DNA of 64,000 nt from a virus: positions 32,001 to 96,000 of IMG/VR virus record IMGVR_UViG_3300042698_000029; one strand, given 5' to 3'. A program made the position numbers and the translations under genes. The notes under the pieces were generated by a model. The model was not told the DNA's origin and searched no databases. It saw nothing but the letters and a program-made list of their open reading frames with translations. Each line of letters opens with the position of its first letter. Position 1 is the stretch's first letter. Below are positions 618 to 63,160 of this stretch, piece after piece.

Positions 618-716
618 GGGGAACCTTTCGCAGAGGCGGGGACTCATTCTTGCCGCAGGGGAGGGACCGGGTAAGGCTTCCGGTGCGTGAGGCTGGTCAC
701 GTCCTACCCTGAGCGG

Positions 717-1196
717 ATGAGCAGGGAAATCGGTGGTACGGATATTCCGGTGGTGCGCGGCTTCACCTATGAGGACTGCACCGGCAGTGAGACGGGACGG
801 TGCGGGCTGTGTTCTTCGTGTGCGAGGGCGGCTTCCTCGACGGTGACGGCGATGGTGGTGGACTGGCGGTACACGCGGCGGGGCCGCAGCTTCCCCTCCT
901 CCAATGCGGAGGAACAGCGGTATGCGGTGAACCTGTCGAAGCGGCTGCTGGCGATGCTGGGCCTGCCGGGCGGGGCGGAGCCGCTGTGCCCGGAGTGCAC
1001 GCGCGCGAAGGAGGCGAAGTGTGCGCTGTGCCTGCTGGGTGCGGGTGCGCTTGCGGGGGAAGGACCCGGGCCGACCGCTCGAAGTGAGCCCGGATCCCCC
1101 GTGCGTACGCGGGGTGATCGTAGCGTCACAGTGGCGCCGGTGAATGAAGCGGCGCGGTTTTCGCAGGAGATGGACAAGACGGCGGGTGCGGCTTAA
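717..1196 (+). CDS. Cys-rich hypothetical protein (putative Zn-binding)
   Basis: CGLCSSC and CPEC...CALC motifs; ATG 717 preceded by -10-like TACCCT 6 nt upstream. Confidence 0.5.
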   Translation: MSREIGGTDIPVVRGFTYEDCTGSETGRCGLCSSCARAASSTVTAMVVDWRYTRRGRSFPSSNAEEQRYAVNLSKRLLAMLGLPGGAEPLCPECTRAKEAKCALCLLGAGALAGEGPGPTARSEPGSPVRTRGDRSVTVAPVNEAARFSQEMDKTAGAA

Positions 1197-1242
1197 TGTG
1201 GAGGCTCGGTGATCGGGACGGCTCTCGTGGGGGCCCGCCCCG

Positions 1243-1670
1243 GGAAAGGCCGCCTCTTCCGCACTCGTAGGGGCGGCCTTTCCTGTGTGCACATCCGGGC
1301 GGCCGGTCCGCTAGAGTGAGGCCTGTGAGTTGATCCGCGAGAGCCGTCTTTCCACCACTCGGGGGAGGCGGCTTTCGTGTGTGCGCAGAGGATCTGTTTG
1401 CCCGGTATCCTGAGCACGTCGCATGAGAGGTCCCTCCGCGCTCTCCGAGCCTGCGCGGAGGGACCTGGTTCCGGGAGCGCCGCCCTTCCTCCAGCCGGAC
1501 GGGGCGGCGCTTTCGTATGGACAAGACCGGCGCAGGGCGGCTAGGTTGGTGGTGACCCGGAAACGACACCGTCCGAGCGCTTACCGGCCAGATGCCCTCT
1601 GACCGGAACCCTTCCTTTGCAGGTGCTCGAACTTCTTGTTGTAGCCCCATCCCCGCCAAGGGATGGGGCT
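1243..1670. terminator. Cluster of five terminator-like GC-rich hairpins
   Basis: Inverted repeats at 1243-1283, 1339-1376, 1428-1466, 1476-1511 and 1643-1670; four have CTTTC at or just after the 3' arm. Confidence 0.65.
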
Positions 1671-1691
1671 TTCCTTCGTATTGGGGTGGGG

Positions 1692-2984
1692 TTAGTCGTC
1701 GTCCTCGTCGTTGTCGTCCTCGTCACAGGGCGGCTGGTGTTCGAGGTCGCGGTCCATGAGCTCGTTCTCGCGGGCGATGCTCGCGTTCTCCAGAGCCATG
1801 CGTTCCAGCTCCAGCTCGATCTTCTTCTTGAGCTCGGGCTCGCAGACGTCGCAGTCGGAGATGCAGCTCATGACGTGGACGCCGTCCAGCGGCAAGCAGA
1901 TGGTGTGGCTCCAGCCGTAGAGACGCTGGGCGCGGGCGGTGACCTTCCCGTCGGCCGTGACCAGTCCGGCCTTGACCAGGTCGGCCATGACCGCCTTGAC
2001 GGCGGCGTCGCGCTCTTCCTGGGTGAGGGTAGGGGCGGCGTCGGCGGTGACGCCGGTCGGGACCTGGATGCGGGCGGTACGGGCCACGGCGGCCTGGCGT
2101 GCGGCTGCCTCGACCTCGACCAGCTTGGGGGACAGGACGGAGACGGCCTCCGGCTTCGGGGACAGGCCGGTCAGGGGGCGGCGTACGACGGGCACGGCGC
2201 CGGTGGAGGCGGCGGAGTCGACCACCCGCAGGACGACTTCGTCCACGGTGAGGGTGATGGTGTGCTCTTCCACCAGCTGGTGGAAGCGGTGGTTGACCGC
2301 GTGGCAGCGGTTCTCGTTGCGGTAGAAGTGCGTGGCCGCCTCTGAGTGCTCCTCGCTTTCGCCTTCGGTGTGGGAGCGGGTGGAGACGTAGCCGACGGAG
2401 GTGGAGTACGCGGAGGTCGTACCCATCTCGACGTGGCTGGACTGGGCGCGCGACACCCGCGACAGCGAGGTGAGGAACGTGCTGGTGGTGGAGGAGTCGT
2501 GGGAGGACCCGCCGACGGAGCCGCCGATCTCGAAGAAGCCGAGGTCGAGGCCAGCGCCGCCGGAGCCGGACATGGACGAGTCGTGGTGGGTGGAGGCCTC
2601 GCGGCCGGAGGTGACCGAGGACAGCGAGGAGAAGGCGCTCGCCATGCCCGCGTTGTAGTAGGAGGACGCGGAGGTGTGGGCTTCGCGGTGGACGCGGCTG
2701 GTCTCGGTGTCGTACGAGAACTTCGATGCGCGGTCCTGGATGGACAGGCGGACGGTCTGGCCCGGGAGCAGCGTGACCGTCTTGACGACGGGGCCGAGCA
2801 TGGTGGGGCCGGTCCTGTTGGTCAGCGTCAGGTGCCAGGTGGCTTCGACCTGGACGGCGGGCTGGCCGTCGGCGCGGGGTACGGCGTGCAGGATCCGGTA
2901 GGCGGGGCGGATCTGGTGGACGGGCTGACACCGTTTGAGGACGGGACAGCACTCGACGTCGTCGTGGGGAGGGGGCGTGGTCAT
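1692..2984 (-). CDS. Putative beta-pore-forming-toxin-like protein (430 aa)
   Basis: ATG 2984 with GGAGG RBS; long Ser/Thr-rich region around GAGLDLGFFEIGGSVGG; Cys clusters at both termini; C-terminal coiled coil and acidic tail. Confidence 0.55.
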   Translation of the reverse strand: MTTPPPHDDVECCPVLKRCQPVHQIRPAYRILHAVPRADGQPAVQVEATWHLTLTNRTGPTMLGPVVKTVTLLPGQTVRLSIQDRASKFSYDTETSRVHREAHTSASSYYNAGMASAFSSLSSVTSGREASTHHDSSMSGSGGAGLDLGFFEIGGSVGGSSHDSSTTSTFLTSLSRVSRAQSSHVEMGTTSAYSTSVGYVSTRSHTEGESEEHSEAATHFYRNENRCHAVNHRFHQLVEEHTITLTVDEVVLRVVDSAASTGAVPVVRRPLTGLSPKPEAVSVLSPKLVEVEAAARQAAVARTARIQVPTGVTADAAPTLTQEERDAAVKAVMADLVKAGLVTADGKVTARAQRLYGWSHTICLPLDGVHVMSCISDCDVCEPELKKKIELELERMALENASIARENELMDRDLEHQPPCDEDDNDEDDD

Positions 2985-3319: not shown

Positions 3320-3378
3320 GCGCGTGCCGCGCATGTCTGGTGTGCCCCGATTGACCGGGATGTGGTCTCTTGGGGTAC

Positions 3379-12631: not shown

Positions 12632-12851
12632 GTGTTTTTGACGGCGGAGGGTCGTCGGTTTGCTCCGCCGGGACCTCCCCTCTCGTACGGGCGGCGACCC
12701 TTCAGTGTTCGAAGAAGGAGCCCAGAATGGCAGGGGGCTCTCCTTGGAACGTACCGCCGAACCGCTGAGATCACGCTGCAAACGACTGTGACCGTGGTCA
12801 CGCGGTACGCCTGACGCAAATCGGGGCAAGCCGGTACGTAGACTGACTGAT

Positions 12852-13364
12852 ATGGACTTGTACCCCCCGGACTTCTCGACCGAACTCGGGAGACTTCGGG
12901 CACTCATCCCTGACGTCGACCAGAGCGACTTCAGTGACTCGGGGGAGCCCTCGTACCTCTTTTCGGATCAGCATCTGAACGCCTTCCTGGCGCTGTACGG
13001 GTCCAGCACTTCCCAGGTCGGCAAGATCAAGCGTGCCGCTGCATCTGCGCTGACCGCTATCGCCACGTCGGAAGCCTTGATTTCCAAGGTGATCCGCACA
13101 GAAGACCTCCAGACTGACGGCGCCAAGCTGGCCACGGCCCTTCTTTCGGCTGCCGGTCGCCTCAACCGCGAGGCGGAAGATGATGACGAACGGGCAGACG
13201 ACCTCGACGGCGGCGGGTTCGCCATCGTGGACTTCGAGCCCATGCCCCGCGACTACTTCGACAGCTGGTGGCGGGGGTTCCCGGGCAGCTGCGGGTGCGG
13301 CGGCGGTGGGTGCGGTAGCTGCGGGAACTACGGACACGGATCCGGATTCGGAAGGTGGCAGTGA
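12852..13364 (+). CDS. Head-to-tail adaptor
   Basis: GRLRALIPD, YLFSD, KRAAASAL, EALISKVIRTEDLQTDGAK as in actinophage adaptors. Confidence 0.85.
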   Translation: MDLYPPDFSTELGRLRALIPDVDQSDFSDSGEPSYLFSDQHLNAFLALYGSSTSQVGKIKRAAASALTAIATSEALISKVIRTEDLQTDGAKLATALLSAAGRLNREAEDDDERADDLDGGGFAIVDFEPMPRDYFDSWWRGFPGSCGCGGGGCGSCGNYGHGSGFGRWQ

Positions 13365-24257: not shown

Positions 24258-24258
24258 C

Positions 24259-37609: not shown

Positions 37610-38061
37610 CAGTCGGTACCCTCCACGATCTCGTCCCCGGCCACGAACGGGTCAGCGAGCTTGCCGTCGGCGTCCAGGACCTTCTGCTTGGTCGAGGCTT
37701 TTCCGATCTTCACGGTCCAGTTCTCCGCCACTTCGCACAGGGACTTGTAGAGCGGGGAGTCCTCGCCGAACACCTCTTTGGCCAGAGTGGCGTCCGGCTT
37801 GACGACGGAGATCCTCCGCAGCTGCGTCTTGTTGAGAACCTTCTCAGCGAGCTGGCCCGAGAACCGGTTGGGTCGCGAAAGGACGACGCTGACGTCTCCG
37901 ACCACGCGCGTACCGGGACGCTTGGAGCGGTGACCCAGCTCCTCCTTGGCCTTCTCCAGCAGCCGCGCTACGGCGGCGTGGTGGGTGTGCAGGTGGTGGG
38001 CGTGCCTGGCCAGCTGGTCGTCGGTCAGCGTGGTGACGTCGATGTCCTCGAAGTTGCTCAT
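37609..38061 (-). CDS. Hypothetical protein
   Basis: AGGAG RBS; coupled to neighbours. Confidence 0.65.
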   Translation of the reverse strand: MSNFEDIDVTTLTDDQLARHAHHLHTHHAAVARLLEKAKEELGHRSKRPGTRVVGDVSVVLSRPNRFSGQLAEKVLNKTQLRRISVVKPDATLAKEVFGEDSPLYKSLCEVAENWTVKIGKASTKQKVLDADGKLADPFVAGDEIVEGTD

Positions 38062-38612: not shown

Positions 38613-38665
38613 TCTACGGGTCCCGATAAGAATCTTCAGTCTACGGGAGAGTGATCCCGGACACA

Positions 38666-40541: not shown

Positions 40542-40778
40542 TCAGTTCTTGCGGTTCAGTCGCTCCCGGCGCAGCTTCCGCCGCGCAGCGGCCTTCCGCC
40601 TGATCTCCTGCGCGTCGGCCGGGAAGGCCAGCTCGGGGCTGGCGTCCGCCTTGAAGGCTTCGTGTGAGGCGTTCAACCCGAAGATCTCCGCCCGCAGAGC
40701 GATCAGCCATGCTTCCCGGGCCGGATCTCCCTCGGCCGGGGGCAGGGCTTGCGTGTCGATGGTCAGCGTCTCGGTCAT
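40542..40778 (-). CDS. Small hypothetical protein
   Basis: GAGGAG RBS. Confidence 0.55.
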   Translation of the reverse strand: MTETLTIDTQALPPAEGDPAREAWLIALRAEIFGLNASHEAFKADASPELAFPADAQEIRRKAAARRKLRRERLNRKN

Positions 40779-41020
40779 CTCGGGCTCCTCGGGTATCAGC
40801 CGGGACGCCGCGCTCGGTTGGCGGGTCGCTTCGGCTTGGCGAATGAAGGTATGGACATGGGAAACTCCCAGGTTCTTGGTGGGTTTTCCGTTCCTTCCGC
40901 CTTCGAGACTACCCGCGAAAGCCCAGGTGGCAGAGGGTCGAGAGCCGTGATGACCGTCACACCGGAACAGCCTGTCAAACAGAGGGCAGCCCCGCCAGCG
41001 GTTCTCTGGCGGGGCTGCTT

Positions 41021-42949: not shown

Positions 42950-43455
42950 ATGACCTCGTCGGTGAGGCGGGAGATGTGGTCACAGGTGGTCCGGTGGGCG
43001 TTGACGGACGTGTTGCAGACCGCCACGGGTACGGCCGCCGCGCGCAGGAGGTCCATGCGCTCCATCGGGATTTCTGTGAAGCCGTCGCCCCCGCTGCGGA
43101 TAACTCGGTGGAGCATCGGGTGCATCCAGGTGTGGTACTCGTCGCGAGCGTTCTTCACCAGGGAGTACACGACGCCTGCGTGGCTGTGGAACGACCTGAT
43201 GAAGCGGGGTCGCGGGAGCCAGAGGAATCCGTGCTCGCGGGACTCGCGGAGGAATACTCCGCAGTCAGGGGCCTTCTCGTCGTACTTGGGCTTCCAGAGG
43301 TCGTCCATCCACCCGCTGACCTCGTCCTTCAGGTAGTCCCTGAGATCGGTGGAGCGGATATGGTCGATGCCACCGAACAGAGCGTAGCCGTCAAACGTCT
43401 CGAAGTGGATGGCTACGTGCTCGTTGCTGTTGAGGGTCGGGCGGATGTTGCTCAC
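42946..43455 (-). CDS. Hypothetical protein
   Basis: AGGAG RBS; 4-bp overlaps. Confidence 0.6.
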   Translation of the reverse strand: MSNIRPTLNSNEHVAIHFETFDGYALFGGIDHIRSTDLRDYLKDEVSGWMDDLWKPKYDEKAPDCGVFLRESREHGFLWLPRPRFIRSFHSHAGVVYSLVKNARDEYHTWMHPMLHRVIRSGGDGFTEIPMERMDLLRAAAVPVAVCNTSVNAHRTTCDHISRLTDEVM

Positions 43456-43745
43456 TTCTTCTCCTTCAGGACGAGCCAGTGGGTGCAGTCGCAGGTGCCC
43501 CGGCAGGAGCAGGTCTCCTTTTCCGGCGTGATAGTGACCGGCATGGACTCGTCCATGACCACGGTCTCCATGAGGTCAGGGGGGAGGCTCTTGTTGCAGA
43601 CCTCGTGAGTCAGGAGAACGTAGCCCTCCTCCACGGTCAGACGCCACTTGCCCTCGGTGGGGTCGCAGATGCAGTGGTCCGGCTCCGGGAATTCCACGGT
43701 CTTCGTCATGGAGTCGGGCAGGAACAGGTGCGGAAAGCCGCTCAT
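43452..43745 (-). CDS. Cys/His-rich hypothetical protein
   Basis: GGAG RBS; CSCRGTCDC. Confidence 0.6.
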   Translation of the reverse strand: MSGFPHLFLPDSMTKTVEFPEPDHCICDPTEGKWRLTVEEGYVLLTHEVCNKSLPPDLMETVVMDESMPVTITPEKETCSCRGTCDCTHWLVLKEKK

Positions 43746-43885
43746 GGCTTCTCCTCGGATCGAGCTGTGTTGTTACAAGAAGAAGCCTGTCAGGGCAGGT
43801 GCCTGGATGCCAGGTCGGAAGGGTGTGAGTCCGCTCACGGCGCGGCCCCGAAACCCCCGGGGCGCTTCGTCGTAGCCTGCCGCCT

Positions 43886-44218
43886 ATGCCCAAAACCGTC
43901 CGGATTCCCCGTCCCGTCCTCGCGGTCTGCCCGACGACGGTCACCTTCTCCGTGCTCACGGAGTCCGACCTCAGGGCCGCGTCGGCGGTCCTGGGCATCC
44001 CTGCTCGAAAACTCCGCAGGAGCGTCTGTGAGGCCCTCAAAGGGCACGGGGAGTCCCTGGAGACCACCAGGGAGGTGTACGACCGCTGGAGGGCCCGTGT
44101 GGGCTCTCTGCGGGTGTTCTACGTCGTGCACTCCGCCGACCACGTAATCGTGACGGAGATCCTCGTCCGGCCTCCGGGGAAGTCCGGGTGGGTGCACGCC
44201 GAGCTCCTCACGGGCTGA
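43886..44218 (+). CDS. Hypothetical protein
   Basis: Plausible composition; convergent with the GNAT gene. Confidence 0.45.
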   Translation: MPKTVRIPRPVLAVCPTTVTFSVLTESDLRAASAVLGIPARKLRRSVCEALKGHGESLETTREVYDRWRARVGSLRVFYVVHSADHVIVTEILVRPPGKSGWVHAELLTG

Positions 44219-46540: not shown

Positions 46541-46824
46541 AGCAGACCTTTCCGCTCACGGCGTGCCATACCGGGGAACGGGTTTTTTCCTAGACCCGTT
46601 TAGGGTACGGTGAAGCCAGAGCTTGAAAACGAACTGCGTTCTCCGCCAAAAGATGCGCAGTTCAACTGGGACCCCCGGTCAACTGATCGGGGGTTTTCTC
46701 TTGTTCCCCAGAGTCTACTCGCGCGCGGGTCACCGGCTGCTGTGACACAGGCCACAGCCTGTCTTGACAGACAGGAACTATCTGGACATGTGTACTCACA
46801 ACGGACCGTGGTGATAATGGGGCC

Positions 46825-47208
46825 ATGGGCATCGTTTACCACGGCGTAGTTTCCGGCGTCCGTAACAAGATCGGACCCAGCGGCCTGATAATGACCCACT
46901 TCAACCTCAAGAGCCCCGACGGAACGATCCGTCACGTCATCGCCATGCGAGAGGGGCGCCGTCCCTGCCGGGGGGCCGAAGTCGTCCGGGACGGCATAAG
47001 GGCCGAGATCAGCGGCGAGTGGGCCGTCGGGAACAAGGGCCGCAACACCAATCCCGCGTTCTTCGCCCACCGGGTGGTCCTCATGAAGGCCGCCCTCATC
47101 GAGCCGGATTCTTCTCTTGGACCCATTCCAGGTACAGACGACGTATCGCCTGCTCCGCCCGTGGAGGACATGTGGTGGGACTGGGATACGATCAAGGACG
47201 CCTCCTGA
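46825..47208 (+). CDS. OB-fold / SSB-like protein
   Basis: Beta pattern YHGVV..THFNL..AEISGEW..FFAHRV with acidic/aromatic tail. Confidence 0.5.
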   Translation: MGIVYHGVVSGVRNKIGPSGLIMTHFNLKSPDGTIRHVIAMREGRRPCRGAEVVRDGIRAEISGEWAVGNKGRNTNPAFFAHRVVLMKAALIEPDSSLGPIPGTDDVSPAPPVEDMWWDWDTIKDAS

Positions 47209-48597: not shown

Positions 48598-48750
48598 GGG
48601 TTTCTCCTTCATAGTGTGCCAACAAGGTCGAAGGTCGGGTCTCAGCTCGGAGGGGACATCTTTGCGATCCGTCCCAGTCTTTTCCCTGCTGGTTTCCCCG
48701 TCCTTCTGAGAGAAGCCTACGGGGTGAGCCGAACAGATTTAAGACCTGGC

Positions 48751-49800
48751 TCATGTGACCTGAGTCTCACTATCTTCTGCATCCGCCCGGTCCATGCCCT
48801 CTCCGAGACCATTCTCGATCACGGCCCGGGTCTTGTACTCGTCAAAGGCCCTGAGGTTGTTGCGTGTGACCGCGAACTTCGCGGCCTCGAAGAGCAGCTG
48901 CACCGTGTCGTCGTACCCCGCCGCGTCGCGGGCCACGAGCTTGCCCAGGACGAACGCAGACTTGCCCAGTTGCCAGCTGACTCCCCCGGTGCAGGCCCGG
49001 ACCGCATCGAGCTGCCGGGAGAAGACCTTGTTGACCGTGGCCCGGTCAAAGACCTTCGCGCCGCCCCCGACACCCCGGACGGGCTTCTTCGCCTCTTCGG
49101 TGGGGATGTGCAGCTTCGAGTCCACGAGCAGGGACCGGATCCAGTCCGGCAGCGGGGCCACCGGCACATCAGGTTCCGCCCAGCGGTACACGCCGTCCGG
49201 CCGGATCGTGGGTGCCAGGGTCGTCTGAATCCTGCCGGACTTCACGTCGACCTGCCAGGCCACCTTGCTCGTGGAATCCTGCTGGAAGTCCATGGCGTCG
49301 GGCGCGGTGAACAGGAGCTGGCGTCCGCCGCCCGGGGTGATGGTGACGGCCGTCGAGGAGAAGAGGTCCGGGTGATCGTTGGTGTGGGCCAGCATCATCA
49401 TGACGTCCATCCCGGTACGGGGTGTCAGGAACATGGAGCCCGGCCTGGCCTTCACAGGTTCCTTGGGCGGCACGCCTCCGTGGTCGTCACAGTCCAGGAC
49501 AACGAGGTTCGACGGCCCGCACGCCACGGCAACGCCGTACGGGCGGGTCCACCAGCGATGGATCAGTTCGGGGTCGGAGGTCGCCGCGTACACCCCGTGG
49601 CAGGTCTTCCCCCGGGGGATGCAGGGGCAGTCCTCGGGGCGGTGGGGCTTGCGCATGAAGTGGCCCTCGGGCTGCTTTTTGCAGGCTGGGCAGTTGGGTA
49701 GCGGGCGCTTGCCGTCCTCCGCCGAAAGGGGGAAGACCTTCCATCCTCCGGCCGCGTATCCGAGTGCGGCGCCGAGCAGGGACTGGGTGGTTCGGTCCAT
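48751..49800 (-). CDS. Bifunctional DNA primase/polymerase (Prim-Pol)
   Basis: GWKVFPL, CHGVYAATSDP..I.RWW, ACGPSNLVVLDCD, TPGGGRQL, VDVK. Confidence 0.88.
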   Translation of the reverse strand: MDRTTQSLLGAALGYAAGGWKVFPLSAEDGKRPLPNCPACKKQPEGHFMRKPHRPEDCPCIPRGKTCHGVYAATSDPELIHRWWTRPYGVAVACGPSNLVVLDCDDHGGVPPKEPVKARPGSMFLTPRTGMDVMMMLAHTNDHPDLFSSTAVTITPGGGRQLLFTAPDAMDFQQDSTSKVAWQVDVKSGRIQTTLAPTIRPDGVYRWAEPDVPVAPLPDWIRSLLVDSKLHIPTEEAKKPVRGVGGGAKVFDRATVNKVFSRQLDAVRACTGGVSWQLGKSAFVLGKLVARDAAGYDDTVQLLFEAAKFAVTRNNLRAFDEYKTRAVIENGLGEGMDRADAEDSETQVT

Positions 49801-49978
49801 GGCCGTCTCCGATGTCAGAGACCCGTGTTAAGATCGGGCCTACGAGTTCGCGCAGTGAAAGAACCTCTTGGGTAACCCCCAGGGGGTTCTTTCATGTGCA
49901 GGCTGTACAGATTCTTTCCGGGTAACACGAAGCCCCAGACCACCAGCGACGCGGTCCGGGGCTCCTGGTTCTCGGGTG

Positions 49979-50158
49979 TTACTGGAAGTCGCTGCGCACG
50001 GTCTCGGCGCGGCCGTCCTCCTGGGCCGGTCCCCGGCCAGGATCCATGAAGTCGCCGGACCGCTGACCCCGGGCGATGCGGGTCAGCTCCTCGCGAGTGC
50101 GGACAGGTTCGCCGGGGGAAGGTACGGACGCAGCGGTTTTACTTCGGAACAGTCCCAT
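49979..50158 (-). CDS. Small hypothetical protein (59 aa), absent from the ORF track
   Basis: AGGAG RBS; MGLFRSKTAAS...SDFQ; directly downstream of GntR. Confidence 0.45.
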   Translation of the reverse strand: MGLFRSKTAASVPSPGEPVRTREELTRIARGQRSGDFMDPGRGPAQEDGRAETVRSDFQ

Positions 50159-50170
50159 GATGAAGCGCTC

Positions 50171-50932
50171 CTACTTGTGGGTGATGGTGAACTTGGCGGT
50201 CTTGGCCTGCGTGGTGATGACCACGAAGACCGTCTCGCCGTCCCGGGTCTTCGCCATGCAGAAGGAGCCCATGGCGATCGTTCCGGCGGGGACGCCGAAG
50301 ATCTCGGCCGACTCGGGACCCATCTTGGTGTCGCCGAACTCCGTGGTGTAGTCCTCCACGTCCCACCCGAGCCACTGGCTCATGTTGATCCCCGAGGGCG
50401 GGCTGACGATCGGGTGGCCGACCGGCGTCATCATCGGTGCCATGCCCGAGTAGCCGGGGTCCTGCGGCATGGCCACGGCTCGGTCGTAGGGGAGGACGGT
50501 CACCTTGTGCTGCACCGGGGCGCCGTTGACGCGCTTGACGTAGTGGCGCTCCACGATCTGCGTCCCGTCGGCGATGCCCCACTCGGTGAGGCCGTTCGCT
50601 TCGGAGATGCCGACCTTGTAGAGGGTGGTCTCCTTGACGTCGTTCTCGTCGTCGGTGCTCCACACCGGGAGGGTCCAGTCCGGGGCCGAGTCGAAGGTGC
50701 CCAGGTGGATCTTGGTGGTCTTGGAGCCGATGACCCACGTGCCGGACTTCTTGGAGATGCGCACCAGGCCTCGCAGGGCCAGGGCCTGGTAGGCGGCCGA
50801 CGCCGTCTGGGCGGAGACCCCTTCCTGGGCACCGAGCTCGCGGACGTTCAGGAGCTTCTTGCCGTACTCGTAGCCCTCGGCCCCAGCCGCGATCAGGACC
50901 TCGATCTTCTCTGCGATCTGCTGCGCATCCAT
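50171..50932 (-). CDS. GntR-family repressor with UTRA-like domain (KorSA/TraR-like)
   Basis: LLNVRELGAQEGVSAQTASAAYQALALRGLV...GTWV. Confidence 0.8.
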   Translation of the reverse strand: MDAQQIAEKIEVLIAAGAEGYEYGKKLLNVRELGAQEGVSAQTASAAYQALALRGLVRISKKSGTWVIGSKTTKIHLGTFDSAPDWTLPVWSTDDENDVKETTLYKVGISEANGLTEWGIADGTQIVERHYVKRVNGAPVQHKVTVLPYDRAVAMPQDPGYSGMAPMMTPVGHPIVSPPSGINMSQWLGWDVEDYTTEFGDTKMGPESAEIFGVPAGTIAMGSFCMAKTRDGETVFVVITTQAKTAKFTITHK

Positions 50933-50968
50933 CGTTTCTCCTCGGTTGTGTTCCAACAGGTTACTTCT

Positions 50969-50990
50969 ATCTTGACACGAGGGTCAAGAT
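50969..50990. promoter_or_regulatory. Palindromic operator overlapping a TTGACA -35 element
   Basis: ATCTTGAC-ACGAGG-GTCAAGAT between divergent GntR and CYTH genes. Confidence 0.55.
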
Positions 50991-51047
50991 GAACCAGGGT
51001 GTGGGACATAGCTCACAGCCGTTGAGCAACGTCATGAGGGAGAAGCC

Positions 51048-51512
51048 GTGAACGAGTCCAAGCGCCGCCTCAACGACATCGACAGTCTCCGCCGCGAACT
51101 GGTCGGGGCGGGATGGCGCAAGAGCGGCTTCGCCACCGAAGTCGACCTCTACTACAGGACCGCCGAAGGCAAGCTCGGCCGGGTGCGGACCTGCGGATCT
51201 TTCACTCAGGTAGGCACCGAGGATGGTGACAGCCAGGTCATGAACGTCCCCTTCCAGGTCGAAGCTCTCCGCAAGGCCACCGACGGCTGGTCCACCGAAC
51301 ACCACGCCCGCGTGGAGAAGACCCGGTACTCGTACATCTCGGAGTCCTTCCCTGGAGTCCGCCTCGACATCGACTGCATCCCCGGCACCGGCATGTTCGT
51401 GAAGGTGCGTTCCGAGTTCGACCCCCACGTACTGGACCAGCTGGAGGTCAAGCTCGGCCTGGACCGACTGGAGCCCGTCGAAGCCCCCTACCGGGACCTG
51501 GTCGCGCGGTAG
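51048..51512 (+). CDS. CYTH-fold (class IV adenylate cyclase/triphosphatase-like) protein, degenerate
   Basis: NESKRRLNDIDSLRREL..G, EVDLYY, VEKTRYSY, LDIDCIPGTGMFV, LGL...PYRDL. Confidence 0.65.
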   Translation: MNESKRRLNDIDSLRRELVGAGWRKSGFATEVDLYYRTAEGKLGRVRTCGSFTQVGTEDGDSQVMNVPFQVEALRKATDGWSTEHHARVEKTRYSYISESFPGVRLDIDCIPGTGMFVKVRSEFDPHVLDQLEVKLGLDRLEPVEAPYRDLVAR

Positions 51513-51575: not shown

Positions 51576-52346
51576 CTACAGGAGGTCGTCAGTGTCCAGG
51601 ACGTACACCGAGTCCTCTGGGTTACCCGAATCGGAAGTCCCGGGATCCGAGGAGATGCCGATCACGCGGGTCCACCCGCCGTCTCCGTGGAGGACCTTGT
51701 CGTCGTAGCGGTAGTGCATGTGGCCGTGGACGTACACCAGCGGCGTCAGGGCCTGGATGGCGTTGGCCAGGTTACGGGGGTTGGGGATAAGGCCCGGGTC
51801 CGACAGCGGGGGCTTGTCCAGACGAGCGCTCGCGGGACGGTCGTGCGCCACGATGACGGACACCCCGGGAGCGGCGTCGCGGACGGCGGCTTCCATGGCT
51901 TCGGTGGTCATCTCCTCCCCGGGGAACCAGTGAGTCTCCGGCCCGGTGCACTCCTCCCACTGGAGCCGGTACTGCTTGTCCAGGGAGTAGGCACCTCCCA
52001 GGGCGATGAACCGGCGGCCACCCCACGTCCACACCAGGCCGTCGGGGGCCAGGCGCAGGTTCGGACGGACCCGGATGAATCCGTCGGAGTCCAGATCGTG
52101 GCCATGCATGTCGTGAATCAGCTTCACGTTGTCGTGGTTGCCCCTCACCACGGTCATCCGGCGACCGCTGCTGACGAGCATCCTGTTGATTTGGTCGAGG
52201 AACCGTACGCCGCGCCTTTCGTGGGTCCAGAAGCCGAAGTCCCCGACCTGGAGGATTTCCTCGATACCCAGGTCGACGGCCCTTTGGACCACCCATCGCG
52301 AGTGCGTGATGCTGCCGTGCAGGTCCCCAGCGACAAGGATTCGCAT
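51576..52346 (-). CDS. Calcineurin-like metallophosphoesterase
   Basis: GDLHG, VGDFG, RGNHD, AHD, HGHMH. Confidence 0.92.
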   Translation of the reverse strand: MRILVAGDLHGSITHSRWVVQRAVDLGIEEILQVGDFGFWTHERRGVRFLDQINRMLVSSGRRMTVVRGNHDNVKLIHDMHGHDLDSDGFIRVRPNLRLAPDGLVWTWGGRRFIALGGAYSLDKQYRLQWEECTGPETHWFPGEEMTTEAMEAAVRDAAPGVSVIVAHDRPASARLDKPPLSDPGLIPNPRNLANAIQALTPLVYVHGHMHYRYDDKVLHGDGGWTRVIGISSDPGTSDSGNPEDSVYVLDTDDLL

Positions 52347-52482
52347 GCCCGTTCCTTTCCTTCGTAAGGATCACCTTAGCCCGTTGTGAGCTCAGGCCCA
52401 AGGTGGGCGGACAGTGACGCCCACCACACAACGAGGCCCCCGTCACACTGCCTGACGGGGGCCTCGCTTCTACACAGGGTTT

Positions 52483-52727: not shown

Positions 52728-53141
52728 CTACTCCTTGACGACCACAGAGGAGTCCCCCGCATACACGGGCTCCGCAGGATCGCTCGTGAAGTAGTGGACC
52801 AGGATGACCACACCCGTCAGAGCCGCCGCGATCATCGCCCCCGTCAGCAAGAAGACAGCCAGGAGCAGCAACGCCATCGGATAGAACTTCGAGCTGCGGG
52901 AGCGCCGACCGGTTCGGCCGCCATGCGAACCCGTCTTACGAGTCTCACGGTCCTCCAGAAGCCGGGTCAGCCGGTACTTGCACCGGTCGATCTCGTTGAG
53001 GACGGCTTCGCGAGCCGCGCCGGGGTAGAGCTCGGGCAGGTCGCGCTCCAGCTCGATGATCCGGATGGTCATCCTCTGGATCTCCCGCGTACGCTCCGCC
53101 GGAGTCAGGCCCACCTCGTCGTACCGCTCGTTCTCCACCAC
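52728..53141 (-). CDS. Membrane protein
   Basis: C-terminal hydrophobic hairpin; GGAGG RBS. Confidence 0.6.
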   Translation of the reverse strand: MVENERYDEVGLTPAERTREIQRMTIRIIELERDLPELYPGAAREAVLNEIDRCKYRLTRLLEDRETRKTGSHGGRTGRRSRSSKFYPMALLLLAVFLLTGAMIAAALTGVVILVHYFTSDPAEPVYAGDSSVVVKE

Positions 53142-53272
53142 CTCCGTCCTTTCTCTCCCTTTGCAAGAGACAGTGTGACCTAAATCTCAGAGAAAAACCA
53201 AGCGGGCCCGACCCTTTTCTCAGGGCCGGGCTCACGTTGGTGTCGTGCTTATCCCAGTTTCGGGCGGAATCT

Positions 53273-53908
53273 TCACTGGCCCACGACCGAGTTGATCGTG
53301 CTGCCGGTGGTCTCGGTGACCGTGGACATGAACATCCCCGGCAGACCGCCGCCGATGACCACCAGGCCCGCAATGGCCATGGCGAGGAAGAACTTCGTCT
53401 TGAGTTCGAACCACGGGGCGGCGAACAGGCCGAAGATGGCGAACACGCCGAGGTAGACCGGGTTGATGCCCTGAATCATGGTCATCTGGGCGAGCTTCAT
53501 CGTCATGTCCGTCATCATCTGGGCGGGCTTAGCCCAGAAGGAGTTTCCGTCGATCTCGCGGACCTTCAGGAACAGCCCCATCGCAGCCAGCCCCATGAGG
53601 ATTGTGAGGCCGGTCACCCACTTCGGGGCGTCCTTCGCATCCAGGACACCGTCTCCGTTCACGTCGTCCCAGTTCTCCGGGTTGAACGGGCCGATGGGGG
53701 CACGGGCCCGGATCACCTTACGGCCCCTCGCCTTGGCCTTGGCGTTCCTTTCCGGCAGCTTCTGGACCCGCCGGGGGGAGGTACCGAAGCAGTACATCAT
53801 CACAAAGACGATGGTCAGAGCAGCCCCGGCGAAACCACCGGCGGCTGTGGGGGTGATGGTCGGGGCCAGGTTCCCGGCGGCGAGCGTCTCGTACATGGTC
53901 GTGTTCAC
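53273..53908 (-). CDS. Multi-TM membrane protein (transfer/spread accessory candidate)
   Basis: About four hydrophobic segments; GGAGG RBS; DVNGDGVLD loop. Confidence 0.6.
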   Translation of the reverse strand: MNTTMYETLAAGNLAPTITPTAAGGFAGAALTIVFVMMYCFGTSPRRVQKLPERNAKAKARGRKVIRARAPIGPFNPENWDDVNGDGVLDAKDAPKWVTGLTILMGLAAMGLFLKVREIDGNSFWAKPAQMMTDMTMKLAQMTMIQGINPVYLGVFAIFGLFAAPWFELKTKFFLAMAIAGLVVIGGGLPGMFMSTVTETTGSTINSVVGQ

Positions 53909-54738
53909 AGGGTGCCTCCCGGGGCGCCGAGTTCGATGAGGAAGGTGAGGAAGCCGGAGAGGTATCCGACCAGTGGAACCCGCAGCGCCCACAGGAGCCA
54001 CCGGGTGGAGATGAGTGACCGCCAGTACTCGGCAGTCGCGACCGAGAGGCCGAGGACGATCAGGGCTCCTATCCAGTGACCGACGGATCCGGCCTCCATG
54101 GCCGCCTGAAGGTACTCGCGCATCTGGTACGGGACACCGGTGAAAAAGTCCCAGGTGTGCGGAGTGCCGCCGCCGGTGAGGTAGGTGGCTCGGGGCATGC
54201 CCGGCATCTTCGCCGCGATGTCCGTGGCCACTATGAAGCGGTCGTACGCGGCCACGAGGAAACCCCCGGAGAAGAACCACGCGGTCCCCGTCATGACGAG
54301 GTACTTGAAGGTGTTCTGCTTCGTGAAGCCCTTCGCCCGCTTGAACTGGTGAGAAGCCTGGCGCCGGGCGTCCCTCCGCTCGTCTCGCTCCTCGATCGAA
54401 CCGATGGCCTTCTCGGCCAGTCGCTCCATGAGGCGCTTGTAGCGGAGTTCGACGTCGGACTTGCCCTCGTCCTCTTTCGTGCGCTCCACCGGCTTGGGGG
54501 CCCGCTCGGCTTCCGCGACCTCTGCCGCATCGGCCTGCTTCTTCCACTCCTCGGTCTTCTCCCGAAGCTTCTCCGTGGTGGAGGTCCGGATCTTTCGGAC
54601 ACGGTCGAAGAGCTTCGTCTTCTCCGTCTCGGGGTCGTAGTCGGGTTTCGGGGGAATTGCGAGCGGTGCATTTGAGGGCACCGGGGGAATCGCCCTGATC
54701 TCGGTTTCCGCTTCGAGAGTGGCGGGAGCCTGGTTCAT
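53905..54738 (-). CDS. Membrane protein with charged N-terminus (transfer/spread accessory candidate)
   Basis: AGGAGG RBS; three TM segments. Confidence 0.6.
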   Translation of the reverse strand: MNQAPATLEAETEIRAIPPVPSNAPLAIPPKPDYDPETEKTKLFDRVRKIRTSTTEKLREKTEEWKKQADAAEVAEAERAPKPVERTKEDEGKSDVELRYKRLMERLAEKAIGSIEERDERRDARRQASHQFKRAKGFTKQNTFKYLVMTGTAWFFSGGFLVAAYDRFIVATDIAAKMPGMPRATYLTGGGTPHTWDFFTGVPYQMREYLQAAMEAGSVGHWIGALIVLGLSVATAEYWRSLISTRWLLWALRVPLVGYLSGFLTFLIELGAPGGTL

Positions 54739-54983
54739 GGCTTTCCTCCTTTTCCTCCGAGTTGTAACTGGCTTCAGTGGACGGCTTGTTGCGCTCTGTC
54801 CTGACACCAACAATGCCGCAAAAAAGCCCTCCCGTCTGCGACGGAAGGGTGTGAGGTACGTCTCTTTTCGGGGTAGTCTTCAGACGGGTGAACACAGGGC
54901 TTCCAGCGACGTCTCTGTGCTTTCCTTTCCTTCCGGCGGCCCTCCTCGGTACGTGATCTCCCGAGGAGGGCCGCTCTCCGTTT

Positions 54984-56447: not shown

Positions 56448-57012
56448 GGAAGCGGAGCCTGTTCCCCTCTCTCCCCGATCCGCCCTCTTGGTTCTAAGGG
56501 TCTAGTCCGGCGGGAGTGCGACGTGGAACCGGCTGTGCCTTCCGTTTCCTTCTATTGCCATCGTTCACCGCCAGGTGTGGAAGCGCAACGGGGATCGCTT
56601 CCACGGTTTTGGAAGCGTTGGATCCAGAAGGGGTCGAAACCGTGTCTGACCTGCGGAAATGCATGCGAATCGGGGCGAAGTGAAGTGCGTCACATCGGGC
56701 CTTTTCCGGCTCCATCGCGGCTCCTCACGTTCGCGGGTAAGGGGAGAAACGCTCCTCCGAGGATACGGACCGGCCCTCTCCGGTTGCCGTTTGTAAGAGG
56801 ACTGCATGATTCCGCTTCTGCTTCCAAAGCGCTTCCAAGTCAGATGGTCAGACTGGAAGCAGGCGTGTCAGAGCAGAAACGGAAGTGTGCAGTCCTCTTA
56901 TCGCACTTGGAAGCAGGCGTTCGGGAGGCCCGGCGTTGTTAACCGGACTGGTCTGTTCCGCAAGGAATGGGGAGGGTGTTGCCGAGACCCCTCCGGAAGC
57001 ACAACCGGAAGC
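56448..57012. repeat. GGAAGC repeat cluster (clt/TRS or partition-site candidate)
   Basis: GGAAGC at 56448, 56579, 56611, 56855, 56909, 56995, 57007; GCTTCC at 56597, 56820, 56831. Confidence 0.7.
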
Positions 57013-57351: not shown

Positions 57352-57577
57352 TCCCCTCAAGAGGGGTCCGGAAGGGGGATATTCCTCTCGTTCGGGCTGG
57401 TGTCCTCTGCCAGGTGGATCTACGGGCTTTATCCTTTTGCCGGACGGCGCTCCTCACACTGGTGGCCCAAAAGGGAGGGGCGTCGTCGGGGATACAGGGC
57501 CCGCATGGGTGGCCCTGTACGAGAAAACGGGCTGGTTGCCTTCACGGTGACCAGCCCGTTTTCGTTGAACGCTCAAA

Positions 57578-57804
57578 GTCTCATCGTCACTCTTCGTATC
57601 GTCTCAGCGAAGTTTCATGATCCATAGAGTGAGACTTTTGATGTCACACTAAGTCACTGGAAATCATGACAAAAAGGTCAGGGTCTCACGAGACGTTGAG
57701 ACGAGTCTCACGGACGTCTCACCGTCTCACCCGGTCCCACCTGCACGTTTTCCCGTGCGACGTGGCCCACTCCCCAAGGGCGCCTCCCCGTGAGACTCCG
57801 AGAC
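57578..57804. repeat. GTCTCA/TGAGAC repeat cluster upstream of traB
   Basis: GTCTCA at 57578, 57601, 57683, 57705, 57716, 57724; TGAGAC at 57630, 57697, 57791; CGAGAC at 57689, 57799. Confidence 0.7.
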
Positions 57805-57844
57805 TTTGGTGACTGTCCGTGCGTCAGGCGAGGGGTGCCGGAGA

Positions 57845-57860
57845 AGTGATCTAGATCACA
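57845..57860. promoter_or_regulatory. CRP-type box upstream of traB
   Basis: AGTGATCTAGATCACA, 15/16 match to TGTGATCTAGATCACA. Confidence 0.65.
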
Positions 57861-57930
57861 TAAGAGGCCCGTAGAACTATCTGGACACGGTCCGTACGGT
57901 GAGAGGTCGATCCCCGAAAAGGAGTCCGCC

Positions 57931-59991
57931 ATGCTGCACGCATCCGTACCCGCCGCCCAGTTGAATTCCGCTACCGAATACCTGGCCGCCACCGGCGGCG
58001 CGGGAGACGCCCTCCAGTGGGTCATCATCTGGGGCGCCATCCTCTGCGGAGTCCTCTACTTCGTCCGTTACCGCGACGGAGATCACGAGATCTCCGAGGA
58101 CTTCGGCAAAGTGTTTCGCCGCACGGGGATGAAGAGGGGCTCCACGCCCGAGAAGGCGGAGGAGGCCCCGGAGCCTGTCGAGGAGGCCGGGCCCCTCTCG
58201 GCGGCCGACGTCGAGGCTCTCGTGGAGCGCAAGCTCGCCGAGCGGATGCCGTCGATGTCCGGTTCTGTCACGATTCCCGGCATCCCCCGTCAGCGCGCGG
58301 GGGACCAGGTTCCTCCCCCCTCCATGCCGGTGAGCTTCGAGAAGGCCCCTGAGGCCGTCCAGGAGCCGCTGCCCGTCGTAGAGGCTGCTCCCCTCCCCGC
58401 CGCCCCTGCGAAGCCCGTAGAGGCCGTCCAGGAGCCCGTCAGCGCCCCGGCGGCCGAAGCCTCTGCGCGTCCTCGTGAGCGCCTGGTCGTGCCCGAAGTG
58501 AAGAAGGCCCCCCCGGCCACAGCTGCCACATCCGCCCCTCGCATCACGCGGGAGGACGAGCCCCTGGAGGCCACCCCGGAGGAGAAGGAGCTGCTCGACA
58601 AGCTCGCGCCCCAGGTGTGGGAGAAGATCTCCCCCACGCGCAAGCTCGGCGGGACCGTGGTGGAGAGCGCCGTCCTGACCCGGGCCGGGATCCAGGCCGT
58701 GATCAAGCTGAACGGCGACTGGACCCTGCCTAAGTTCCAGGGCCGCGAGGAGTCCGTGCGCATGCTGCTGGAGGTCCGCAAGGACGTCATGACCCGCATC
58801 ACCGAGTCCGACAAGTCCGGCTGGGTGGTCCTCAGCCTGCGCACCCGCAGCGCCTGCCCGACCTTCATCCCCTGGTACCCCGGAGCCCCGCTGGGGTTCT
58901 GCACCGTGACCGGCAAGGAGATCCGGGTCGACTTCCGCAGGCACCTGGCCATTGCCGGAGCCTCCAACATGGGCAAGTCCGTGACAGCCCGGAACATCTT
59001 CGCCGAGGTGTGCTTCGACTCCGTGGCCGCCCTGATCTACTGCGACCCCAAGATGGTGGAAGGCGCGCTCTGGCGGGGCCGGGCCCGGGTGGCTCTGGAC
59101 CCCGATGAGATCCACGACGTGGCCCTTGAGCTGGACGAAGAGAACACCCGGCGCAAGAACGTCATGCAGCAGCAGGGCTGGGACAAGTGGATCCCCTCCG
59201 AGGAGGCTCCCACCCTGATCGTCCCCGTGGACGAAGGCGCCTCCCTGGTGGCCGACGCCAAGGACTCCTCCCTGGAGAAGGAGGAGAAGATCATCCGCAA
59301 GAAGACCCTCTCCATCTTCGTCAAGGGGGCCCGGGAGTGGCGCTCCCAGGGCATCCACATCATCTGGATGACCCAGTACCCGACCGTGGAAGAGGGGATG
59401 CCGCAGCAGATCGGCGCCAACATCCCGGACCGGATCTCCATGGCGCTCGGCATGGAACGGCACGCCGAGGTCGTCTTCGACAAGGAGAACGTCGCCAACG
59501 GCTGGAAGGCCCACAAGCTCCCCCGCGACCCCAAGGGACTCGCCCTGGTGAAGGTGGGCGAAGAGTGCGAGCCCAACCCCGTGCAGGTCGTCTACCTGGA
59601 CAAGGACCGGATCGCCGAGCTTCCGCTGTCGGGCATCTGGTACCCGTCGGGAGTCCGGTACGCCAAGGAGGTCACCGACGAGCCGGAGCCCGTGGACGAG
59701 GCCAGCATCGAGCAGGGCGAGCCGGAGGACGCCGAGCCCAAGGTTGCGGTGAACGACCAGGCCACGACCCTGATCACCCGGGACGGCGAGACGGTCCTGG
59801 TCGAGGAGCCATTCACCTCCGAGGAGAAGGTCCTGATGGCCCTGGAGATGTCCGAGACCGGTCTCATGGCCTTCGCGGACCTGATGAACGAGACGGCCAT
59901 CCCCAAGCCCACCCTCTACCGGCTGCTCAACGCCATGCTGGAGAAGGGGAAGATCGCTAAGGGCGGTCACGGCGAGTGGAAGCTCCCCTGA
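57931..59991 (+). CDS. traB: FtsK/SpoIIIE-family conjugative DNA translocase (TraB-like)
   Basis: N-terminal TM, AGASNMGKS, CDPKMVE, VDEGASL, RSQGI..WMTQYP, C-terminal winged helix. Confidence 0.85.
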   Translation: MLHASVPAAQLNSATEYLAATGGAGDALQWVIIWGAILCGVLYFVRYRDGDHEISEDFGKVFRRTGMKRGSTPEKAEEAPEPVEEAGPLSAADVEALVERKLAERMPSMSGSVTIPGIPRQRAGDQVPPPSMPVSFEKAPEAVQEPLPVVEAAPLPAAPAKPVEAVQEPVSAPAAEASARPRERLVVPEVKKAPPATAATSAPRITREDEPLEATPEEKELLDKLAPQVWEKISPTRKLGGTVVESAVLTRAGIQAVIKLNGDWTLPKFQGREESVRMLLEVRKDVMTRITESDKSGWVVLSLRTRSACPTFIPWYPGAPLGFCTVTGKEIRVDFRRHLAIAGASNMGKSVTARNIFAEVCFDSVAALIYCDPKMVEGALWRGRARVALDPDEIHDVALELDEENTRRKNVMQQQGWDKWIPSEEAPTLIVPVDEGASLVADAKDSSLEKEEKIIRKKTLSIFVKGAREWRSQGIHIIWMTQYPTVEEGMPQQIGANIPDRISMALGMERHAEVVFDKENVANGWKAHKLPRDPKGLALVKVGEECEPNPVQVVYLDKDRIAELPLSGIWYPSGVRYAKEVTDEPEPVDEASIEQGEPEDAEPKVAVNDQATTLITRDGETVLVEEPFTSEEKVLMALEMSETGLMAFADLMNETAIPKPTLYRLLNAMLEKGKIAKGGHGEWKLP

Positions 59992-61420: not shown

Positions 61421-62148
61421 TGGGCTTCCTCCAGCATCTTGGCGAGGAACGTCTTGGCGCTGATACCGCGAACTCCGTCTTGGATCCCCTTCACGGATTC
61501 GACTACGTCGTCCGTCACGTACTGAGGAGGTACTTCGTTGTTCTCGGGCAGGAGCGCGATGACCACCTCCATGGGCATGTACGGCGTGACATCCCCTTCG
61601 ACGCCACGGTCAGCCAGCATCTTCTTGAGCTTCTTGCTGACGTGCATCGTCCCGTTCAGGACGAGCACCGGTACGAGGGTGATGACGCCGTCTTCGCTCA
61701 CGGAAGCCTCGTAGGCCGTGTGAGCCCCGGCGAGGTCCTTGAGGCGGGCGCGTCCCTGGGCATCGAGAGAGATCAGGCCGGACGATTCGCGCGCAACACA
61801 GACCTCCTGCTCCGGGTCGTACCCGCGAGTCAGGTCCTCCTCGGTAACCCCGGCGTCCTTCAAGTACTCGAAGACCTGCTGGAAGTCGATCGTGTCGGGG
61901 AATGTCTCCGTCCAACCTCCGTGGGGCATCTGGTGAGGGGAGAGGAAAGAACCGGGGTGAAGCTCACGGAGACGGCCCAGCACGTGCCCTTCCATCGTCA
62001 GGGACTGGGAAGAGGGGAAGGGGCCGAGATGGACGACCTTCTCCCACCCGTCGCTAACGAGGGCCTTGACCCGCGCCTCCTTTCCCACGCCAACCTTCAG
62101 GGCGCCGAACTGAGCGTGACGGAGGACGTAGATTCCGGTAGTACGCAC
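61417..62148 (-). CDS. GIY-YIG/T5orf172-like domain fused to an AbrB-like antitoxin domain
   Basis: GIYVL...LKVGV...RV...GWE...GWTETF, then SLDAQGRARL...DGVITLVPV; GAGGAG RBS. Confidence 0.55.
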   Translation of the reverse strand: MRTTGIYVLRHAQFGALKVGVGKEARVKALVSDGWEKVVHLGPFPSSQSLTMEGHVLGRLRELHPGSFLSPHQMPHGGWTETFPDTIDFQQVFEYLKDAGVTEEDLTRGYDPEQEVCVARESSGLISLDAQGRARLKDLAGAHTAYEASVSEDGVITLVPVLVLNGTMHVSKKLKKMLADRGVEGDVTPYMPMEVVIALLPENNEVPPQYVTDDVVESVKGIQDGVRGISAKTFLAKMLEEAQ

Positions 62149-62312
62149 AGCAACTCCTCGGGGAGGTCTTCGACTTGATGTACCTAGCTTATCAAGCGCA
62201 GCTCTCTGGATAAGAGCTAGTACCTGTGATGTATGCGACAACGAGGAAGCCCCCAGCCAGTACGTCGACTCGGGGCTTCCTGTGTTCCGGCTCCAGCGCG
62301 GCCGGAGCACGA

Positions 62313-63047
62313 TCAGAGCTGTTCCTCGTAGTGCAGGTACCCGGTCCCCGGGCAGACCTTCACGGCAACCTCTACGACCCGGTCGTCCTCCAGGTACACC
62401 GTCCGCACGTCCACCAGAACCGTGGTCCCCTCTTCCAGCCCAAGGAGGTCCAGTTCCTCGGAGTACGCGGGCCGGGAGGTGATGTCGTGGGAAGCCCTGT
62501 CCTGGGGACTGCCGAGCCTCTCGGAGGCCAGCTCCCGCGATCCGCCCGTAGAAGTGGTTCCTGACAGTTCCGGAACCTGGTTCATGACGTAGGAGGGGTA
62601 GTAGGAGCTTGAGAGGTGAGAGACGGTGCCGTTCCGGGAAACCACCCTGACCCGCACCTGAACCGGATGTCCCGGAGCGACGCCCAGACGTTCGGCCACC
62701 ACCTCATCAGCGGCCGTCACTTCGGATCGGACGATCCGGGAAACTTCCCCTTCCCGCAGTGCCCGTCCGGTCTCCGCGTGGCGCCGCACCCGGTCCGCGA
62801 TGGAAGGACTCGACACGACGGCCGGACGGTAAGCGACTGAAGTCCCGCTTCCCGAGGACGCAACAGTGAGTCCGTCGTTCTTCAGGACCTGGTAGGCCCT
62901 GTTGGCCGTGGCCATCGAGATCTTGAACTGGTCGCAGACCTTGCGGAGGGTGGGCATCCGGGCGCCCGGGGGCAGCTCGCCCGACAGGATCTTCGTCCGG
63001 AAGTAGCCCACCACCTGGTGGTATGTCCCACGGGTGCTTTCCGTCAT
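62313..63047 (-). CDS. GntR-family repressor with UTRA domain (KorSA/TraR-like)
   Basis: YHQV...ILSGELPPGARMPT...ATANRAYQVL...GSGTSV; UTRA SSSYYP, ITSRPA. Confidence 0.92.
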   Translation of the reverse strand: MTESTRGTYHQVVGYFRTKILSGELPPGARMPTLRKVCDQFKISMATANRAYQVLKNDGLTVASSGSGTSVAYRPAVVSSPSIADRVRRHAETGRALREGEVSRIVRSEVTAADEVVAERLGVAPGHPVQVRVRVVSRNGTVSHLSSSYYPSYVMNQVPELSGTTSTGGSRELASERLGSPQDRASHDITSRPAYSEELDLLGLEEGTTVLVDVRTVYLEDDRVVEVAVKVCPGTGYLHYEEQL

Positions 63048-63138
63048 GATCTTTTCCCCTATCTTGCTCTGAAGTGTTGCACATCACTCTGTTCTGCTCT
63101 AGATTAAATGACGCAAGCAGCGCACGGCAAGAGAGATC

Positions 63139-63160
63139 CACTGTGAAGTGGCTCACAGTG
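63139..63160. promoter_or_regulatory. Perfect CRP-type box in the divergent promoter region of GntR
   Basis: CACTGTGA-AGTGGC-TCACAGTG. Confidence 0.65.

Follow-up and report, generated by a model that had tools for sequence, protein, structure and literature searches.

A CRP-consensus box marks a predicted promoter class throughout a large phage genome

The 64,000-nucleotide (nt) stretch of DNA analysed here (the window) comprises bases 32001–96000 of the complete 153,126-bp IMG/VR virus record IMGVR_UViG_3300042698_000029, a phage genome (G000) of 65% G+C that carries a 119-bp terminal repeat at its ends and whose structural genes resemble their counterparts in Frankenweenie, Kela and Satis, three large Streptomyces phages. 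The subject of this report is the dyad GTGA-N6-TCAC (the box), which recurs between the genes of this phage and agrees with the consensus binding site of the cyclic AMP (cAMP) receptor protein, CRP. The window encodes a TraB/FtsK-like translocase (57931–59991), a WhiB-like protein, a PrimPol protein, a UvrD-like helicase and two GntR regulators (GntR#1 and GntR#2). The gene map was home-made from codon usage and contains 229 genes in 81% coding DNA; single start codons in it may be wrong. About three quarters of the phage open reading frames (ORFs) have no recognisable domain. Coordinates are those of the window unless they are marked as genome positions.

A preliminary description of the window had listed seven intact cores (686, 12787, 40946, 43824, 56679, 57845 and 63142) and six copies with one or two mismatches (36911, 38650, 46741, 48754, 51002 and 53174). 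All of these are present, and an eighth, unlisted exact core was found at 53603. The eight exact cores compare with 1.12 ± 1.06 in 100 dinucleotide shuffles of the window, not one of which reached eight, and the whole 153-kb phage contains 27 where about 3 are expected, giving a density of one exact core per 5.7 kb. When all 4-mer dyads with gaps of 0–12 were ranked by their over-representation in the whole genome, GTGA-N6-TCAC came first (z = 13.9); the second-ranked dyad, TGTG-N8-CACA, is an extension of the same motif. A chance origin of the boxes is ruled out by the shuffles together with this top rank among all dyads.

The boxes are chiefly an intergenic feature, as had been proposed. Nineteen of the 27 exact cores fall in the 29.5 kb of intergenic sequence (19% of the DNA), against an expectation of 0.57, and the eight coding cores represent a weak excess over the 2.6 expected. 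Intergenic cores with one mismatch number 33–38 (12.7 expected). Within the window itself, a location between genes or at a gene end holds for seven of the eight exact sites, the exception being 53603, which lies inside an ORF. Among the 45 intergenic occurrences of GTG-N8-CAC, position 4 is A in 28 and position 11 is T in 28, and there is little information content in the spacer and flanks; this strong preference and the free spacer uphold the match to the CRP consensus. For 12 of 20 exact boxes the distance from box centre to start codon is 73–94 nt, and 73–95 nt is the usual range. The preceding stop codon lies anywhere from overlap with the box to hundreds of bases away, and the boxes are thus positioned relative to the downstream gene and not the upstream gene. 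They are spread over the entire 153-kb genome, mostly ahead of small genes of unknown function, so the concentration in replication, transfer and regulatory arms that had first been described does not hold.

The sole informative relative is L024, a JGI contig found through TraB homologues, of which 22 kb were compared; a TraB homologue search of IMG/VR gave no relatives, and one of genome contigs gave an irrelevant hit. L024 shows approximately 80% nucleotide identity to the phage and is syntenic with window 47.4–60.5 kb and 67.4–76.4 kb of the genome. Summed over nine shared intergenic boxes, identical positions number 71 of 72 in the core, 47 of 54 in the spacer and 337 of 432 (78%) in the flanks, which reveals purifying selection on the box core and not on the spacer. 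The box upstream of the TraB-like gene (57845) stands out as conserved amid diverged DNA (core 8/8, spacer 6/6, flanks 22/48), and the linker downstream of it has undergone substitutions only, its -10 hexamer and spacing being kept. At box 52413 four of the six spacer positions are altered, with the core, the -10 hexamer and their spacing retained. There are no insertions or deletions between any box and its -10 hexamer in the comparison of the phage with L024, and the four exact cores in 22 kb of L024 amount to the same density as in the phage. The motif is real, is under selection and has the CRP consensus.

A second element accompanies the boxes at a constant distance. Counted from the box centre, a TANNNT hexamer begins at 41–44 nt, with a mode of 42, on 10 of the 20 sides of exact intergenic boxes that face a gene, where the background is 0.18 per 4-nt window. 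Of the 18 sides that face away from a gene, 1 has such a hexamer; for one-mismatch boxes the corresponding figures are 8 of 30 and 1 of 46. Alignment of the box promoters on this presumptive -10 hexamer showed that G is favoured at -13 and -14, and further upstream only C-37, C-36 and T-35 stand out; neither TTGACA nor any other -35 hexamer was found in them. If the TANNNT occupies positions -12 to -7, the box centre would lie at about -54.5 and the box would span approximately -62 to -47, with start sites deduced from sequence. Taken together, the boxes form a predicted promoter class (box, 35 nt, G-TANNNT) with about 18 clear members and about 30 further candidates. A 7-mer enrichment search of upstream regions for other repeated promoter motifs gave ribosome-binding-site words only, and promoters of the E. 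coli sigma-70 consensus type are not enriched in this phage.

The boxes of the window and their surroundings are given below; a second motif, T[A/G]TC-N2-GACA(C) (motif 2), is entered where it adjoins a box.

686–701: exact box CGTGAGGCTGGTCACG, centred 76 nt before ORF 87–617 (minus strand); no TANNNT at 41–44 nt.
12787–12802: exact box TGTGACCGTGGTCACG with a -10-like hexamer on both sides, TAGACT at 12839–12844 (plus strand) toward ORF 12852–13364 (plus strand) and TACGTT at 12748–12753 (minus strand).
36911–36926: one-mismatch copy within the 3' end of ORF 36905–37609 (minus strand); no -10 partner, a doubtful member.
38650–38665: one-mismatch box with TAGAAT at 38611–38616 (minus strand), before ORF 38058–38612 (minus strand).
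40946–40961: exact box with -10 TAGTCT at 40906–40911 (minus strand), upstream of ORF 40542–40778 (minus strand).
43824–43839: exact box in a divergent gap, with -10 TAGCCT at 43873–43878 (plus strand); 86 nt from the start of ORF 43452–43745 (minus strand).
46741–46756: one-mismatch box 76 nt before ORF 46825–47208 (plus strand), followed by two copies of motif 2 (46760, 46779).
48754–48769: one-mismatch box at the 3' end of the PrimPol gene, with -10 TAGGCT at 48714–48719 (minus strand); core 8/8 in L024.
51002–51017: one-mismatch box between the GntR#2 gene (50171–50932, minus strand) and ORF 51048–51512 (plus strand); core 8/8 in L024.
52413–52428: one-mismatch box with -10 TAAGGT at 52373–52378 (minus strand), before the metallophosphoesterase-like ORF 51576–52292 (minus strand).
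53174–53189: one-mismatch box 40 nt before ORF 52728–53141 (minus strand); an extra mismatch in L024, a weak or doubtful member.
53603–53618: exact core inside ORF 53273–53908 (minus strand), without a -10 partner; probably not a promoter box.
54850–54865: one-mismatch box upstream of ORF 53905–54738 (minus strand), followed by a terminator hairpin and motif 2 (54797); conserved in L024.
56679–56694: exact box inside a conserved block; no -10 at 41–44 nt.
57845–57860: exact box AGTGATCTAGATCACA with -10 TACGGT at 57895–57900 (plus strand), predicted to serve the TraB/FtsK-like gene 57931–59991 (plus strand).
57878–57887: copy of motif 2, TATCTGGACA, in the spacer of the traB box promoter.
63142–63157: perfect box TGTGAAGTGGCTCACA with 8-bp arms (63139–63160) and -10 TAATCT at 63101–63106 (minus strand) toward the GntR#1 gene (62313–63047, minus strand).
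63178: copy of motif 2, TATCCTGACA, on the opposite side of the perfect box, toward ORF 63271–63471 (plus strand).

The clear members of the promoter class in the window are therefore boxes 12787 (in both directions), 40946, 43824, 57845 and 63142, and the one-mismatch boxes 38650, 48754 and 52413; three exact cores (686, 53603 and 56679) have no -10 partner at the modal distance. The TAGCCT hexamer associated with box 43824 is situated 7 nt before the ATG of ORF 43886–44218 (plus strand), which predicts a leaderless mRNA. ORF 12852–13364 is a similar case. Box 56679 is surrounded by a block of about 75 nt (56640–56705) that is near-invariant in L024 and contains TCTGACCTGCGGAAA; the same 15-mer recurs next to GTGACGCAGGTCAC boxes in the right-terminal DNA of Satis (at about 185.2 kb), which is unannotated there.

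The preceding genes end in terminators, GC-rich hairpins with a T tract, which often follow a box and overlap the stretch between box and -10 in a variable register; a few boxes (genome 9070, 17075) lie inside long hairpins. The boxes were considered as the tops of terminator hairpins or as RNA hairpins and this was rejected, since TANNNT and the start codon keep a fixed distance from the box and the preceding stop codon does not. For the same reason, the hairpins are regarded as separate features that overlap the promoters. One terminator hairpin, at genome 108040–108075 (window approximately 76040–76075) between box 76103 and ORF 75493–76014, shows a compensatory change from C-G to T-A in L024.

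The arrangement suggests how the boxes may act. A dimeric helix-turn-helix protein would bind the dyad nGTGA-N6-TCACn, the centre of which lies 42.5 bp upstream of the first base of a G-preceded TANNNT, and in a promoter devoid of a -35 hexamer the bound protein would recruit or stabilise the host RNA polymerase, most likely as an activator. The likeliest binder would be the cAMP receptor protein of the host, that is Streptomyces Crp, an orthologue of C. glutamicum GlxR and M. tuberculosis Rv3676. This assignment, which we make tentatively and at just under an even chance, has several points in its favour. The boxes match the CRP dyad in their GTGA/TCAC core and free spacer. A 16-bp TGTGA-N6-TCACA dyad with a free spacer, at a fixed distance upstream of the core promoter, is typical of CRP-dependent promoters, where one box is likewise able to serve divergent promoters. 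In E. coli such promoters fall into class I (lac, with the site at -61.5) and class II (gal, -41.5). A G before TCAC is common in the boxes and is also part of the consensus from S. coelicolor footprints, GTG(N)6GNCAC. In M. tuberculosis the CRP sites cluster at -60 to -40 and the upstream ones are associated with activation (PMC4117774); the centre deduced for the boxes, about -54.5, lies inside this cluster and away from the two E. coli positions. No HTH_Crp_2 or cNMP-binding domain was detected in the six frames of the phage, so that any CRP would have to come from the host, and beyond the GntR proteins no helix-turn-helix regulators were recognised among 193 additional ORFs scanned. If the binder is host Crp, the cAMP of the host would control some 40–50 phage promoters, among them the promoters for the TraB-like translocase and for GntR#1.

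The same GTGA-N6-TCAC core, with the same spacing (TGTGA-N6-TCACA), is found in the operator (ROP) of the Streptomyces redox repressor Rex, and the boxes might on these grounds be operators of a host Rex. The Streptomyces Rex operators read TTGTGAA-N4-TTCACAA and either overlap the -35/-10 region or lie downstream of the start site. In the phage, by contrast, the base adjoining the core is A or T in just 2 of 38 half-sites, the outer TT is not preferred, and the boxes are placed upstream of the -35 position. We consider Rex a highly improbable binder.

Position also bears on a further proposal, in which an immunity or master repressor encoded by the element would use the boxes as dispersed operators and keep the genome silent in a plasmid-prophage state. 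The operators of P1 C1, the stoperators of mycobacteriophage L5 and the conserved inverted repeats of phiC31 all serve repressors and are placed over promoters or inside transcription units, those of L5 and P1 being asymmetric. Like these sets, the boxes occur in tens of intergenic copies within one lineage; they differ in standing at a fixed distance upstream of the -35 position, and from -62 to -47 or thereabouts they are clear of both the -10 and the start site. A plasmid-type module in the phage would suit this proposal. The PrimPol gene, a small ORF, and the GntR gene with its divergent ORF (48751–51512) are syntenic with the replication and regulation module (PrimPol-HTH-GntR) of the Streptomyces plasmid pWTY27, and the phage has in addition the TraB-like gene; this segment is a plasmid-derived block within a large phage. 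Tyrosine integrase, serine recombinase or resolvase and ParB were not detected in the phage in a Pfam-based search, and apart from the GntR proteins, which have an operator of their own, there is no recognised repressor candidate. An operator role of this kind appears unlikely. The lifestyle switch for which the boxes had earlier been put forward finds no support here either: besides the missing integrase, serine recombinase and ParB, FtsK/TraB-like translocases are common among Streptomyces phages, and the boxes extend beyond the plasmid-like part.

The two GntR regulators deserve further attention, since they too had been named as possible binders of the boxes. Their genes and the motif 2 loci are as follows.

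50171–50932, minus strand: GntR#2, homologous to TraR/KorA-type regulators of plasmids; presumed to bind motif 2 and not the box.
62313–63047, minus strand: GntR#1, with GntR and UTRA domains (HutC type); predicted box-type promoter.
36093, 46760, 46779, 50968, 54797, 57878 and 63178: motif 2 loci in the window.
17050, 102797, 108050, 133239 and 146304 (genome positions): further motif 2 loci.

Motif 2 thus occurs at 12 phage loci, all of them intergenic, including places within the traB promoter spacer, within the GntR#2 promoter and next to GntR#1. Homologues of GntR#2 with 35–40% identity are found on small Streptomyces conjugative plasmids, and those examined (pWTY27, pSSPS4.7a and a S. 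virginiae plasmid) possess TGTC-N2-GACA in the promoter regions of their GntR genes and zero exact boxes. Motif 2 is probably the kor-type operator of the phage GntR regulators. A kil-kor control like that of Streptomyces plasmids, with the boxes as its GntR operators, would be in keeping with the perfect box beside GntR#1 and the one-mismatch box beside GntR#2, and the traB box resembles the HutC/DasR-type palindrome. The phage has regulators of the TraR/KorA/KorSA type and a TraB-like gene, as in kil-kor systems, but the kor-type palindrome in its traB spacer is TGTC-N2-GACA, separate from the box. Moreover, L024 retains the boxes, yet the GntR#1 segment is missing at the syntenic place, and phages with GntR#1 homologues are without boxes. 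These results contradict the assignment of the boxes to the GntR proteins, which we now regard as very improbable. The traB gene appears to be under two controls, the upstream box and a GntR-type operator in the promoter spacer, and the plasmid-derived circuit, GntR acting on TGTC-N2-GACA, is now told apart from the box system.

Upstream of the TraB-like gene, at 57554–57840, lies a cluster of GAGAC/GTCTC repeats, nearly all copies of which read GGGAC/GTCCC in L024. It looks as if a clt/TRS-like recognition repeat had co-varied with its translocase. Between box 56679 and these repeats, the segment 57079–57340 (plus strand) is conserved with L024 in a manner that looks coding, was not called in the gene map and may be a small traA-like gene. 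Outside the window, ORFs of the right arm (genome 96–153 kb) gave Pfam matches to chaplin (ChpA-C), a thermolysin-type peptidase, an HU-like protein, an SNF2 helicase and TerD, and the same arm contains a gene block with glycosyltransferase, epimerase and methyltransferase matches.

Conservation of the sites in relatives, a check proposed in the preliminary description, is seen in L024 but not in related Streptomyces phages, which are without boxes. The exact core occurs eight times in Satis, six times in Kela and four times in Frankenweenie (185–200 kb each), pZL12 has no exact core in 90 kb, and the IMG/VR relative G001 (167 kb, capsid protein 73% identical) has four cores and no comparable dyad. 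The composite of box and TANNNT is absent from Satis, Kela and Frankenweenie and was found once in G001. Because neither enrichment nor the composite characterises these genomes, the box system belongs to the G000/L024 lineage. Identical 14-mers in Satis lie in non-coding terminal DNA. An identical 14-mer in phage Xkcd426 is located inside the tape-measure gene and was dismissed as coincidence.

Such a lineage-specific pattern is what a phage-encoded factor would give, and it supports reading the same promoter class as the target of an activator that the phage itself encodes and that has escaped recognition, such as a small protein from a middle or late regulatory cascade; its specificity would match the CRP consensus by chance. 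The P2 Ogr- and P4 Delta-dependent late promoters, a phage class read by an activator, have a TGT-N12-ACA dyad near -55 and no -35 hexamer. The phage promoters are alike in lacking a -35 hexamer and in having an upstream dyad near -55; they differ in that the dyad is TGT-N10-ACA and the host belongs to another phylum, and no Ogr-like zinc-finger gene was identified in the phage. Most of the phage ORFs have no annotation, and Rex illustrates that unrelated families may converge on the same core. As to the other side, no candidate gene was detected, and it is improbable that the 8-base CRP core would be matched by chance together with its spacing, the dyad being one of about 3,300 of the 4-Nx-4 form. 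In addition, the box motif is the same in G000 and L024, though the repeat presumed to be read by a phage protein has moved from GAGAC to GGGAC between them. We consider a phage activator less likely than not, yet the nearest rival of host Crp.

Several of these observations weigh against host Crp as the binder: the low core counts in Satis, Kela, Frankenweenie, pZL12 and G001 and the restriction to one lineage that they imply, together with the large share of phage ORFs without annotation, which leaves room for a phage activator. About half of the exact boxes have no TANNNT at the modal distance, and a centre near -54.5 differs from both canonical E. coli positions. The chromosomal Crp sites of S. 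coelicolor are far more degenerate than the boxes, and its Crp binds DNA poorly in vitro. The boxes also differ from known CRP sites in lying on a phage and in their density, which is several times that of host regulons: M. tuberculosis has 191 sites on record for Rv3676, and S. coelicolor has 393 targets for Crp (SCO3571). Any Crp binding to the boxes is a prediction. With these points considered, a role of CRP stays plausible.

The timing of transcription in Streptomyces phages is little understood, and the boxes define a promoter class that can be tested. It is conceivable, though we put it some way short of an even chance, that a large actinophage has made some 40–50 of its promoters dependent on host CRP through sites that are closer to consensus, and several times denser, than those of the host regulon. 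Should the binder prove to be a phage protein instead, it would represent an activator family not known before. If it is host Crp, the boxes would be the strongest Crp sites known for Streptomyces, in which Crp-DNA binding was hard to show in vitro, and the phage programme would be tied to a second-messenger regulator that governs germination and antibiotic production in the host. The cAMP of the host, a signal connected in Streptomyces with germination and early growth, would then set phage expression, and replicating phage DNA would titrate Crp, disturbing host development and antibiotic production.

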